A DNA stretch of 64,000 nt from Patescibacteria group bacterium (GTDB lineage Bacteria > Patescibacteriota > Minisyncoccia > UBA6257 > JACRHW01). Positions 1 to 5,576 of this stretch are shown piece after piece. The notes under the pieces are model-generated. The model saw only the letters and a list, made by a program, of their open reading frames with translations. It did not search any database and was not told where the DNA came from. Location of the stretch: the NCBI GenBank assembly GCA_028865725.1, contig JAGWJP010000004.1:5567-69566 (forward strand), given 5' to 3'. Numbering within the stretch: the stretch's first letter is position 1; each line of letters opens with the position of its first letter. A program made the translations under genes and the position numbers.

Positions 1-34
1 ACAAGTGTGCTACAATAGTCGAAAGATATGTGCC

Positions 35-679
35 ATGAACATTTCACATCTTGCAGAACGAAAACTGCGTGCCAAGCATATTAACGCGGTGTTGAAACGC
101 CTTTTTCCTCATGCAAAAATGATGCTCCATTATTCCAATAATTGGGAACTCCTTGTTGCGGTCATGTTGTCTGCCCAGTGTACTGACAAAAAAGTGAATG
201 AAGTAACCGCAACGTTATTTAAAAAATATAAAAGACTGGATGATTATGTGCATGCAAATACCAAAGAATTTGAGCGCGATATTCATTCCACCGGATTTTA
301 TCATGCAAAGGCGCGTCATATTCTCGCAAGTGCGAAGATACTATACGAAACGTTTAAAGGAAAGGTCCCGCGTACTATGGATGAGCTGACATCACTTCCT
401 GGTGTGGCGCGAAAAACTGCAAATATTGTACTTGGAAATGCATTTGGCATTGTGGAGGGAATTGCGGTTGATACGCATGTAAAACGCCTCGCTCGCGTTT
501 TGGGGCTTACTGACGAACACGATCCGAACAAGATCGAACGGGATCTTATGCAATTGTTTCCCAAAAAAGATTGGTTTGCACTTACCTACCGACTTATTGA
601 ATATGGCCGGCATTATTGCCCCGCCAAACCACATCATCATGCAGAGTGTCCGCTTACGAAGATCGTGTCATCATTATGA
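35..679 (+). CDS. nth: Endonuclease III (HhH-GPD DNA glycosylase); start may lie at GTG 5 or upstream of the window
   Basis: HhH-GPD hallmark LPGVARKTANIVLG with D in ..AVDTHV.; C-terminal Cys/His cluster region; in-frame ATG at 35. Confidence 0.8.
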   Translation: MNISHLAERKLRAKHINAVLKRLFPHAKMMLHYSNNWELLVAVMLSAQCTDKKVNEVTATLFKKYKRLDDYVHANTKEFERDIHSTGFYHAKARHILASAKILYETFKGKVPRTMDELTSLPGVARKTANIVLGNAFGIVEGIAVDTHVKRLARVLGLTDEHDPNKIERDLMQLFPKKDWFALTYRLIEYGRHYCPAKPHHHAECPLTKIVSSL

Positions 680-949: not shown

Positions 950-1279
950 ATGTCCATTTCTTATGAAGAGTTCAAAAAGGTGGAACTTCGTGTAGCAAAA
1001 ATAGTGGAGGCCGCACGGATAGAGGGTTCAGAAAAATTATTAAAGCTCAAGGTAGATATAGGAACAAAGGGCATGGAGCGCCAAATTGTTGCCGGAATTG
1101 GCAAGCGTTATGACCCCGAAGTTTTATTGGGAAAGGAGATTATTATCGTCGCGAACTTAGAACCAAGAATACTTATGGGGTTTGAGAGTCAAGGGATGCT
1201 GCTTGCTGCCAATGGTATCGAAGGCCCCGTGATTTTAGGAGTGCAAGAAGAAGTTTCTCCGGGAAGTACGATTCAATAA
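950..1279 (+). CDS. tRNA-binding domain protein (CsaA/EMAP-like OB fold)
   Basis: FKKVELRVAKIVEAARIEGSEKLLKLKVDIG...IVAGI typical of MetG C-terminal/CsaA tRNA-binding domain. Confidence 0.6.
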   Translation: MSISYEEFKKVELRVAKIVEAARIEGSEKLLKLKVDIGTKGMERQIVAGIGKRYDPEVLLGKEIIIVANLEPRILMGFESQGMLLAANGIEGPVILGVQEEVSPGSTIQ

Positions 1280-2184
1280 TGGAGCGGGGCTTCGAGAAAA
1301 CAAATATGCAGCGAATTTCGCATTACATAGTTATTCAATCAGGTATCGTTATCGGAATAGGTCTTGCCATACTTCCTATGTATGTGTATGCGTTTACTAT
1401 TGATCATGTTTCCTCTCGGCCCACGAATAGTTTTACGGTACTTCCCGCACATCTCAGTGTAAACCTCTCATCAACCGATGTGGCATCTACGTCTATTTTT
1501 CTGGTGAATCAAAGCAATAAGACGATTGATTTTTCTGTGAGTGTGCGTGATACATCCGGGCTTGCGCATTCGGCACGCAATTGGATTATACCAGAGATAA
1601 CATCATTTTCTCTGGATCCAGGGCAACGCATTCGATTTGGGATTATGGTGCAGCCCCCCGCCTCGCTTCTTGATGGTGATTATTATGCGTCACTTCTGAT
1701 TGCGGGAACTACGCGTGATGAAACTGCATTGCATTTGATCAGCAGCTTAGAGGTGCCCGTGTTTATCGCCGCCAATAAAGGAGGCACGCTCATCACGAAA
1801 GGGGAGATTACGCGTTTTTATGTGGCACCAGTGCTTTTTTCTTCTCCCATTCATTTTGAGTGGTCCTATCGCAACAAAGGAAATTCCTATGTAAGAACAG
1901 GAGGGGTGATTGTAGTACACGATGTACTGCGCGGTGCGGAGGAGGACATTCCTATCAATATGTTTTATGTTCTTTCGGGAGACACCAAAAATATTGTGAC
2001 GTCCTATGCGCCACGCGTTTCATTCGGTATTTTTACTGCCACGCTTGCGTTATTTGATGAGAAGCCTCACTCAATTATATTTGTGCTCGTTCCGTGGCAA
2101 GAAACAGGTATTGTTCTTGTGTTTATAGTGTTGTGGTGGGTCGGGAATGGGATGCGAAAGAAATCGCATATGAGCGTGAAATAA
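1279..2184 (+). CDS. Membrane-anchored hypothetical protein (N-terminal signal/TM plus C-terminal TM); first gene of surface-protein cluster
   Basis: Hydrophobic segment near N-term (IVIQSGIVIGIGLAILPMYVYAF) and near C-term (IIFVLVPWQETGIVLVFIVLWWV); ATGA coupling to upstream gene; resembles DUF916/DUF3324-type layout (inference). Confidence 0.45.
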   Translation: MERGFEKTNMQRISHYIVIQSGIVIGIGLAILPMYVYAFTIDHVSSRPTNSFTVLPAHLSVNLSSTDVASTSIFLVNQSNKTIDFSVSVRDTSGLAHSARNWIIPEITSFSLDPGQRIRFGIMVQPPASLLDGDYYASLLIAGTTRDETALHLISSLEVPVFIAANKGGTLITKGEITRFYVAPVLFSSPIHFEWSYRNKGNSYVRTGGVIVVHDVLRGAEEDIPINMFYVLSGDTKNIVTSYAPRVSFGIFTATLALFDEKPHSIIFVLVPWQETGIVLVFIVLWWVGNGMRKKSHMSVK

Positions 2185-2227
2185 TGCACATATACATATA
2201 TGCGAGAACCCTATATAATAAAAACAT

Positions 2228-2965
2228 ATGAAGCGCGCATCAACGATCATTAGTATTTTCGCTTATCTTCTTCTCGTTTCTTATGCGGGAGCGGATACGA
2301 TGTCTTCCGCGAACTATAAGATTGTACAGGATTCATTGAATTATGGAGGAAGTGTGAGTTCTTCCACAAACTATAGTCTTAATGATACGGCAGGAGATGT
2401 GGCCCCGGGATCTATCAGTAGCACTAATTATACGATAGGGGGTGGGTACTTGCCCATGAATGAGACGACGCTTTCTATCTCTCTTTTAAGCCCTACATCT
2501 CTTTCATCGCTGCAAGATCAGACATCGGGCTCTTCCACAGATACTTCCCCGGTGACTGTTACCACCGACGACCCCGCAGGATACGCCCTGACGGTGAGTG
2601 CTGCCACATCGCCTCTTCTTGAAAAGGGAAGCGATAGTATTGCTGATTATGCGGAAACGGCGAGTGGAACACCGGAATTTTGGAGTGTAGCCACAGGGGA
2701 CGCCGCGTTTGGTTTTTCTGTGAGCGGGTCTAATGTACCCGGGCTGTTTAAGGATAATGGCAGCGCGTGCGGATCAGGATCTGCAAATGGATTATGTTTT
2801 ATGGGATTCAAAGGAACTAATCCTATTACGATAGGAAGTATGAGCACACGTACATCCACGAGCGGTGACACCACTACGCTTCACTATCAAATGGAAACAA
2901 AAGGAGCAACGATTTCTCCGGGAACTTACGGCGGCACTCTCACGCTTACCGCAACTGCGAATTAA
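2228..2965 (+). CDS. Secreted Ser/Thr-rich protein with three S-x-NY-x-[IL] N-terminal repeats
   Basis: Signal peptide MKRASTIISIFAYLLLVSYAGA; repeats SANYKIV / STNYSLN / STNYTIG; C-terminal GTYGGTLTLTATAN reminiscent of WxL-domain tail (weak). Confidence 0.5.
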   Translation: MKRASTIISIFAYLLLVSYAGADTMSSANYKIVQDSLNYGGSVSSSTNYSLNDTAGDVAPGSISSTNYTIGGGYLPMNETTLSISLLSPTSLSSLQDQTSGSSTDTSPVTVTTDDPAGYALTVSAATSPLLEKGSDSIADYAETASGTPEFWSVATGDAAFGFSVSGSNVPGLFKDNGSACGSGSANGLCFMGFKGTNPITIGSMSTRTSTSGDTTTLHYQMETKGATISPGTYGGTLTLTATAN

Positions 2966-2973
2966 GGGCTATT

Positions 2974-4878
2974 ATGCAAATCAAAAAATATCTTATTACA
3001 GCAGGAAGTAGCGTGGTAATAATAGCGGTATCAGTACAGGCTTCTTTTGTGTGGGGAGCGGGAGGGAGTCCGCCTGTCACGGCGACGACAAGTAATACGA
3101 TTTCAATCACTATTAATGCCGCTTCGGGGGGCTCTACATCGTTGTCTGCGGGGACAACGAGCAACGCAAGTACTCTTCCGGTATCCTCTGCAACGTCCAC
3201 CGCATCATCTTCGTTGCCGTATATTCAACCTGTATCTTCAAGTACGCCCCCTTCAGTTCTCTCTGTCTTAATACAGAATATTACGGATTATTCGGCGGAA
3301 ATAGTAGTAAAGAGCAATGAGAATGTATCGGTAAAAGCAAGCTACAACCCTCTTGGTTTTTTCCAATCAGAATCCATATATGATACTGCAACGAGCACGG
3401 ATCATATCCTCACATTAAATGGATTGGATCCAGAAACGCAATATGTTTTTCAGCTTGTATTAACAAATGAAAATGGATTACAAACATTAGACAAAGCAAG
3501 AGATTTTCGTACTCTTTCTGATATTACCCCCCCCGTTATTACCCATCTGCATGTGTTCGATATCACGGATAGAACTGTACGTTTTGATTTTGATACCAAT
3601 AAGCCTGCGAATGTAACGATTTTATATGGATCTACACCGCGACTCGAGCTTGGAAACTTATTAGTGGGGGGGTTTGATGTAACTCACTCGCTCTTTTTGT
3701 CGGATTTAAAGCCAAGCACCCCATATTATTTACAGGTTGTGGTAGCGGATCATTTTGGAAATAGCGCAAAAAGTACGCAAGTGAATTTTACGACGCTTGC
3801 CGATACATTTCCGCCAAGCAACGTCTATAATGCTCTAGTGAATGTGATGAGCACTAGCACGTTGATTCAATGGCAAAATCCTCCAGAAAACGATTACGCG
3901 CAAACCATTGTAGTACGATCTCCTGTGACATATCCGAAGACACCAAAAGATGGCGTCGTTATATTTGAGGGAACTTCTACTTCATTTGTCGATTCTGTAG
4001 CGACGGAGACTACGAAACATTATTTTTACACCGTCTTTACAAAAGACTCGACAGGAAATGTAGCATCTGGTGCGCTGGCACAACCGCCAGGGACCCCTGG
4101 ATTTTTGGTGACTAAAAATAGTACTATCATTGATACTGGACTCACCGCCCGTGTAGTGCGGGGGAGCATGGATTTGCAAAGCGGACCCCTTTCTGTAGTG
4201 GCGACAAGTCAGGAGGGTTTTCATGCACTTTCCAATACGCCGCTTACGCTCAGCGTCCCCGCGTCGCGCGTCGTGAAAGCTGTACAGTCCGCGTATCTTA
4301 CCGTCGATCGAAATACTTATTTTCTTGCATTGAATCCCATAACCCATGCCTATGAAGGCCTTACCATCACTCCTGTACAGGAAGGGCACTATCCATTTAC
4401 TATCACTTTTCGTTATCGTGACAATACTATTGAACAAATTCCTGGTATTCTTGTGGTGGATCCTACGGGAACCGTTTATGAGATACAAGATAATAAACAC
4501 ATTCCCGTTCCCAACGCGCGTATTGCGTTGTATATGTTGAATTCCGGAACACGGCAATACGATTTGTGGCCCGCAGGTTCTTATCACCAAGTTAACCCGG
4601 AAATGAGCGGGAACGATGGATCCTATGCGTTTTTTGTGCCCGCGGGAACTTATTATATTGAAGTAGCAAAGGAGGGATATTTATCCTATGCGTCAAAACC
4701 TTTTACGGTGGGAAATGAAGCGATACATCTTGATATTCAATTGATGCGTCCAAATAGTATTTCATCATGGATGCGGGGAATCATGCAGCGATTTGCTTCT
4801 TCGAGCCATAAAACTATTATTGAAGCGACAGGTCTTATTACGCTTGTGATTGTGTCGCTTTTGATTCTTTTACTGTAA
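2974..4878 (+). CDS. Large cell-surface protein: signal peptide, S/T-rich linker, three Fn3-like repeats, CarbopepD_reg-like domain, C-terminal TM anchor
   Basis: Three homologous ~90-aa units (ITDYSAEIVV..., VFDITDRTVRFDF..., LVNVMSTSTLIQWQNP...) with Fn3-like conservation; YGSYAFFVPAGTYYIEVAKEGYL (carboxypeptidase regulatory-like); terminal hydrophobic LITLVIVSLLILLL. Confidence 0.6.
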   Translation: MQIKKYLITAGSSVVIIAVSVQASFVWGAGGSPPVTATTSNTISITINAASGGSTSLSAGTTSNASTLPVSSATSTASSSLPYIQPVSSSTPPSVLSVLIQNITDYSAEIVVKSNENVSVKASYNPLGFFQSESIYDTATSTDHILTLNGLDPETQYVFQLVLTNENGLQTLDKARDFRTLSDITPPVITHLHVFDITDRTVRFDFDTNKPANVTILYGSTPRLELGNLLVGGFDVTHSLFLSDLKPSTPYYLQVVVADHFGNSAKSTQVNFTTLADTFPPSNVYNALVNVMSTSTLIQWQNPPENDYAQTIVVRSPVTYPKTPKDGVVIFEGTSTSFVDSVATETTKHYFYTVFTKDSTGNVASGALAQPPGTPGFLVTKNSTIIDTGLTARVVRGSMDLQSGPLSVVATSQEGFHALSNTPLTLSVPASRVVKAVQSAYLTVDRNTYFLALNPITHAYEGLTITPVQEGHYPFTITFRYRDNTIEQIPGILVVDPTGTVYEIQDNKHIPVPNARIALYMLNSGTRQYDLWPAGSYHQVNPEMSGNDGSYAFFVPAGTYYIEVAKEGYLSYASKPFTVGNEAIHLDIQLMRPNSISSWMRGIMQRFASSSHKTIIEATGLITLVIVSLLILLL

Positions 4879-5522
4879 TGAACATACACCTTCGTTCTAT
4901 ATCGAAATATAGTATTGGATTTTTTATAATTGGAATCGTTGCATGTTCTTTGGTATTTGCAGAAGACATGGTTGCTCCGCAGCTTTCCAGAGTTACGATT
5001 ACGGGGAGTATTGCGATAAAACTATATTCAGATGGCGCATTTATTACGTGGGAGAGCAATAGACCCGAACGATACATTCTTTCTTATGGGGATACTCTCG
5101 CGTATGGACAAACAGAGACTTCGCCCTTACTTGTGACACGCCATGAGGCTATTTTGCGCAATCTCCACAGTGCGACGGTTTATCATTTTCGCATTACGCT
5201 TGAAGACGGATACAATCAAGGCATAAGCAGGGATTACAGTTTTACTACGCTTGCACAAGGTGTAGCGTTGCTTCCTCCAATCGGGCTGGAACGTTTTCTT
5301 CTGTATGGGAACAGAGGTGAGGATGTTTTGCGTTTGCAGCAATTTTTAACGAGGGAAAATTTATATACAGGTCCAATCACTGGATTTTACAATCAAGATA
5401 CAAAGATTGCGGTAGAACAATTTCAATGCAGAGAACGCATAGTGTGCGGAAATAGCTTCTATGGTTATGGGGAAGTGTTGCGAAATACTTTTCACGCTAT
5501 CAATGCACTCCTCGGGGCGTGA
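4878..5522 (+). CDS. Secreted Fn3-like plus peptidoglycan-binding (PG_binding_1-like) domain protein
   Basis: N-terminal TM/signal; C-terminal GNRGEDVLRLQQFLTRENLYTGPITGFYNQDTKIAVEQFQ matches PG_binding_1 consensus; ATG overlaps upstream stop (TAATG). Confidence 0.55.
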   Translation: MNIHLRSISKYSIGFFIIGIVACSLVFAEDMVAPQLSRVTITGSIAIKLYSDGAFITWESNRPERYILSYGDTLAYGQTETSPLLVTRHEAILRNLHSATVYHFRITLEDGYNQGISRDYSFTTLAQGVALLPPIGLERFLLYGNRGEDVLRLQQFLTRENLYTGPITGFYNQDTKIAVEQFQCRERIVCGNSFYGYGEVLRNTFHAINALLGA

Positions 5523-5549: not shown

Positions 5550-5576
5550 TTAGCACTCTTGACAATAGAGTGCTAA
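5550..5576 (+). promoter_or_regulatory. CIRCE operator (HrcA binding site) upstream of hrcA-grpE-dnaK-dnaJ
   Basis: Perfect TTAGCACTC-N9-GAGTGCTAA; spacer contains TTGACA (candidate -35) and TAACAT 16 nt downstream. Confidence 0.85.

Follow-up and report, generated by a model that had tools for sequence, protein, structure and literature searches.

Our analysis indicates, with moderate confidence, that four genes (g1 to g4) in a 64-kb window, the whole stretch of DNA analysed, form a compact and divergent member of a CPR-wide group of surface operons. These operons are Sec-dependent and usher-less, and work by chaperone-assisted beta-strand complementation in the manner of the Pam pilus. The closest described system is this CPR pilus and not the WxL cluster of Firmicutes, to which the preliminary description had likened the locus. 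The locus encodes a WxLIP/PapD-like protein (g1), a PamT-like protein with a pilin-type fold (g2), an Fn3-rich protein with a C-terminal TM segment (g3) and a protein with a peptidoglycan-binding domain (g4).

Locus layout and related loci

The four co-directional ORFs of the preliminary description were all recovered on the + strand (Table 1). Their proposed translational coupling holds for g3/g4, which meet in a TAATG one-base overlap. The upstream tRNA_bind gene (950-1279) is joined to g1 in the same way. The remaining junctions are gaps of 43 nt (g1-g2) and 8 nt (g2-g3), and coupling did not stand for them. Export or anchoring of all four proteins agreed with an N-terminal hydrophobic segment in each and a C-terminal TM segment in g1 and g3. 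The S/T-rich, signal-peptide-bearing nature of g2 (31% S+T) and the Fn3 plus PG_binding_1 composition of g4 were likewise confirmed. For g3, the three Fn3-like repeats and the TM anchor were borne out, and the carboxypeptidase-type domain scored below its cut-off.

Table 1. Features of the g1 to g4 cluster; nucleotide positions are those of the window.
Feature	Nucleotides	Residues (aa)	Strand	Remarks
g1	1279-2184		+	301 aa; ORF check
g1 signal peptide/TM		7-31	+	
g1 Ig-like domain 1		40-166	+	
g1 Ig-like domain 2		175-270	+	
g1 C-terminal TM		273-291	+	
Promoter-like site TATACA-17-TATAAT	2191-2219		+	inside 43-nt g1-g2 spacer; weak evidence
g2	2228-2965		+	245 aa; ORF check
g2 signal peptide		1-24	+	hydrophobic segment aa 4-22
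g2 N-terminal repeat region	2306-2437	27, 46, 65	+	three tandem S-x-N-Y-x-[IL] repeats at these residues
g2 C-terminal Ig-like pilin domain	2471-2962	82-245	+	two conserved Cys
g3	2974-4878		+	634 aa; ORF check
g3 signal peptide		7-25	+	hydrophobic-segment scan
g3 candidate N-terminal strand TSNTISITINA	3088-3120	39-49	+	S/T-rich linker follows
g3 three Fn3-like repeats	about 3247-4089	about 92-372	+	Pfam fn3 E=3e-7; FN3_DSCAM 8e-5
g3 membrane-proximal domain		373-500	+	conserved in family
g3 CarboxypepD_reg-like domain	4486-4743	505-590	+	1.3e-5, 25.9 bits, under 32.3 cut-off
g3 C-terminal TM	4810-4866	613-631	+	hydrophobic-segment scan
g4	4878-5522		+	214 aa; ORF check
g4 signal peptide		7-25	+	hydrophobic; lipobox-like IVAC aa 20-23
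g4 Fn3-like domain		44-127	+	related to Fn3 number 2 of g3 family
g4 PG_binding_1		146-184	+	Pfam 28.1 bits, over 23 cut-off

The promoter-like site in the g1-g2 spacer is, from its sequence, a possible internal promoter of the pilin-like g2. The region has 13 sites of this type where chance predicts 11.4, and the spacer site alone is not significant. Downstream, the cluster stops before a perfect CIRCE operator (5550-5576) that marks the start of an hrcA-grpE-dnaK-dnaJ unit. Among the genes checked, the neighbours of the cluster are housekeeping and heat-shock genes.

Genes of related loci were labelled C (g1-like), P2 (g2-like), F (g3-like) and P1, the last standing for a pilin that bears a donor-strand motif at its N-terminus. 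The order P1-C-P2-F or C-P2-F occurs in about 85 of the 90 related loci, which come from many Paceibacteria-type MAGs. Of the four-gene unit expected in relatives, g1-g2-g3 is therefore conserved, whereas a counterpart of g4 (Fn3 plus PG_binding) was found in none of the 90 other loci that were surveyed. P1, the gene that usually comes first, encodes a one-domain pilin and lies upstream in most relatives; it is missing from the window. HMMs of the g2 and P1 families detected no second pilin-like ORF in the 64 kb. The motif D-x-F-x-[IV]-x-Q-x-[IV], in which hydrophobic residues alternate as in chaperone-usher N-terminal extensions, is present in 69 of 81 P1 and 49 of 84 F proteins. The g1-like, chaperone-like gene is kept in 88 of 91 loci, and C+P2 fusion proteins exist among database representatives and in locus L090. 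The nearest g2 homologues belong to loci L001 and L010, neither of which has a g1-like gene; the system may therefore be able to do without the chaperone.

Proteins of the cluster

Going by its structural model, g1 is most likely a membrane-anchored chaperone-like protein of the WxLIP/PapD type. The AF2 model (pLDDT 89.5) shows a pair of beta-sandwich domains with a TM helix at the C-terminus, and a segment scan placed the hydrophobic segments at aa 13-31 and aa 265-283. When the PDB was searched with this model using Foldseek, the top match was a WxLIP bound to a long WxL protein (9i25_C, E=6e-11), with 262 alignment columns against a 251-residue chain, spanning both WxLIP domains. After WxLIP came dozens of chaperone-usher chaperones, including CsuC, FimC, Caf1M, PapD, CfaA and others (E ~1e-8 to 1e-7; target-normalised TM-score 0.5-0.58). 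RbmA and CEP192 PapD-like domains also matched.

In sequence, g1 is an outlier of a large CPR family, with ~21% identity to it and E=3e-14 against a family HMM made without g1. The conserved LLGDDRGPYSLKDY loop of the family is absent from g1, which also departs from the consensus at a number of almost invariant residues, K58 and R78 among them. Searched by itself, g1 matched no Pfam family at E<=1. PF06030 WxLIP_PGBD (formerly DUF916) was matched by 53 of 58 family members (best 1.7e-9), and the family profile matched the solved E. faecium WxLIP, EfmWxLIP1 (E=4.6e-9). By transitivity through this family, g1 appears to be a remote homologue of the WxLIP PGBD. PF11797 (DUF3324/HBD) matched neither g1 nor any of the 58 family members, and no NCBIfam Pam model was matched by g1.

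Judged by its profile score, g2 is a remote PamT homologue and not an equivalog. It matched NCBIfam NF058579 CPR_pilus_PamT with E=7.4e-9 and 35.4 bits, against an equivalog cut-off of 240. All 23 of the 23 g2-family members matched this model (best 6e-20), though for none was a score at the cut-off shown. No Pfam family matched g2, and NF058581 Pam_pilin_C did not match it. The C-terminal domain showed a donor-strand-exchange pilin type of fold in a structure search (CsuA/B best; also the FimH pilin domain and TasA-like proteins). The top matches were strongly enriched in donor-strand pilins relative to generic Ig domains, with modest scores. The PamT model and g2 have the repeat region in common, and the monomer model of g2 has pLDDT <50 at aa 21-27 and 30-77. 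Among 86 P2 proteins, three repeats are found in 54 and two in 24. These repeats are possibly strand-forming extensions. The g2 family, which counts 2803 cluster representatives at 50% identity, is very large, and its database relatives include giant proteins with a C-terminal g2 module.

The g3 protein matched a family HMM made without it at E=2e-54. Two features set it apart within its family: the CarboxypepD_reg-like domain is peculiar to it, and it lacks the D-x-F-x-[IV]-x-Q-x-[IV] motif, which g3-family (F) proteins and P1 pilins alike carry at the mature N-terminus. By analogy with PamR, g3 may serve as a membrane anchor or stalk. For g4, GenBank MAG records give the label 'peptidoglycan-binding protein'.

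Proposed assembly

We infer strand complementation between g1 or g3 and g2 from fold, homology and analogy. In the proposed mechanism, Sec would export all four proteins through their N-terminal hydrophobic signal sequences, and g1 would be held in the membrane by its C-terminal helix. There, the Ig-like domains of g1 may complete the open Ig-like domain of g2 in a PapD/WxLIP-like manner, a binding step suggested by the observed fold and homology. The tip-type g2 would then be passed to the TM-anchored Fn3 stalk g3, as PamR would suggest by analogy. In relatives, the N-terminal donor-strand-like motif of g3 is that of the rod pilin P1. Finally, g4 may tether the assembly to peptidoglycan. Because the window lacks the P1 rod pilin and g3 has an extra domain, a short adhesin of the tip-on-stalk type is a likelier product here than a long fibre.

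More tentatively, and with less than even confidence, P1-C-P2-F can be viewed as a minimal four-gene, usher-less donor-strand-exchange pilus with a WxLIP-homologous chaperone, which would place the Pam, WxL and chaperone-usher systems on one evolutionary continuum. P1 would be the rod pilin, C the membrane-anchored chaperone, P2 the PamT-like tip and F the Fn3 membrane anchor. The window would then hold a rod-less derivative, with the tip directly on an elongated, peptidoglycan-tethered stalk. If true, chaperone-mediated strand complementation would span monoderm and diderm envelopes.

Known systems and alternative explanations

In Ca. Mycosynbacter amalyticus (Saccharimonadia), the Pam pilus comprises PamA/B/E pilins, the PamT tip, the membrane-anchored PapD-like chaperones PamC/PamD and the PamR anchor, an FnIII protein bearing a strand at its N-terminus and a TM helix at its C-terminus; the pam genes lie in an ATP-synthase context (bioRxiv 10.64898/2026.03.03.709456). 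Like the window cluster, this system is CPR-specific, Sec-exported and usher-less. The significant remote match of g2 to the PamT model adds to the likeness, and g1 resembles PamC/PamD as described in its architecture of signal peptide, two-domain PapD-like fold and C-terminal TM. The Fn3 domains and C-terminal TM of g3 recall PamR, and the N-terminal strand motif occurs in members of the g3 family.

The two systems also differ. Beyond the PamT score, 35 bits versus the 240 cut-off, the window is missing a two-domain pilin of the PamA/B/E type (NTD-linker strand-CTD) and has one chaperone gene instead of two. Three Fn3 and two further domains make up g3, against two FnIII in PamR, for which no NCBIfam model exists, and g4 is an extra peptidoglycan-binding protein. 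Operon order and lineage (Paceibacteria-like versus Saccharimonadia/Microgenomatia) are different, and so is the neighbourhood among the genes checked. The chaperone family here is sequence-related to WxLIP, a link absent from the preprint (bioRxiv 10.64898/2026.03.03.709456).

Chaperone-usher pili (archaic Csu, Pap, Fim, Caf1, CFA/I) resemble g1 and g2 at the fold level only: g1 is similar to the periplasmic CsuC, FimC, Caf1M and PapD, and the C-terminal domain of g2 to pilin domains, best CsuA/B. Related P1 and F proteins also share alternating-hydrophobic N-terminal extension motifs with these pili. However, the present system has no usher and no outer membrane, and its chaperone is membrane-tethered. 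PapD chaperone (PF00345/PF02753), usher (PF00577) and fimbrial Pfam families were not matched by g1-g4 at E<=1. TasA/TLP fibres, archaeal bundling pili and haloarchaeal Tat-fimbriae are chaperone-independent strand-donation fibres (PMC12337348). Unlike the loci described here (88 of 91), they have no dedicated two-domain chaperone gene beside the subunit.

WxL/csc clusters of Firmicutes combine WxLIP (DUF916-DUF3324-TM) with small and large WxL proteins (PMC10599100, PMC9772566; PDB 9i25, 9i1y), and an AF2 prediction has a WxLIP strand completing the WxL sandwich (PMC10599100). A member would be expected to encode two or more proteins with a WxL domain (PF13731, dual Trp-x-Leu motif), a WxLIP whose PGBD (PF06030) and HBD (PF11797) precede a C-terminal TM helix, and a small LPxTG-anchored protein (cscD-type). 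If the window held a genuine cluster of this kind, g1 would be a WxLIP that keeps g2 and g3 on peptidoglycan as non-covalently wall-bound WxL adhesins, the arrangement of Enterococcus, Lactobacillus and Listeria. The proposed likeness stood for g1, through the homology of its family to WxLIP PGBD and the best PDB match of its model. Both systems have a membrane-anchored two-Ig-domain protein and a similar small-partner/large-partner logic. The order of a TM-anchored DUF916-like, a small secreted and a large anchored protein resembles cscA-cscB-cscC, and g4 bears a peptidoglycan-binding domain. The likeness failed for g2, which contains one Trp and has a chaperone-usher-pilin/PamT-like fold, with no WxL chain among its top structural matches. 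The suggested Pfam searches for WxL, DUF916/WxLIP_PGBD and DUF3324/WxLIP_HBD returned no match at E<=1 in g1-g4, and g1-g4 contain neither a W-x-L tripeptide nor an LPx[TSA]G motif. The organism, too, belongs to the CPR and not to the Firmicutes. WxL/csc membership is largely refuted by the missing PF13731 match, W-x-L and LPxTG, and we consider it very unlikely.

A polymeric pilus of g2 alone is an unlikely alternative to the tip-on-stalk adhesin. One N-terminal S-x-N-Y-x-[IL] strand would be donated to the next g2, with g1 as polymerisation chaperone and g3 as terminator or anchor. The repeats do alternate hydrophobic residues, are unstructured in the monomer model and form the part of g2 best shared with PamT. 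The third repeat sits where the paralogous P1 pilins carry their donor-strand motif, and database relatives of g2 have extra N-terminal domains ahead of the repeats, similar to the NTD-linker-CTD layout of PamA/B. Nevertheless, the Pam authors place PamT, which has no linker strand, at the tip (bioRxiv 10.64898/2026.03.03.709456), and most relatives retain P1 as a distinct gene with the canonical donor motif, which speaks against P2 as the rod subunit. It is quite improbable, too, that g1-g4 are unrelated envelope proteins with Ig/Fn3 folds, such as a wall-spanning scaffold or S-layer-associated proteins, that exchange no strands and are syntenic through co-expression only. Ig-like and Fn3 folds turn up in surface proteins of all kinds, and the RbmA and CEP192 matches of g1, the modest structural scores of g2 and the chaperone-free L001 and L010 loci would fit such a view. 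It is opposed by the enrichment of donor-strand pilins among the top matches of g2, the PamT homology throughout its family, the N-terminal strand motif common to P1 and F, the strict gene order across loci and the existence of C+P2 fusions.

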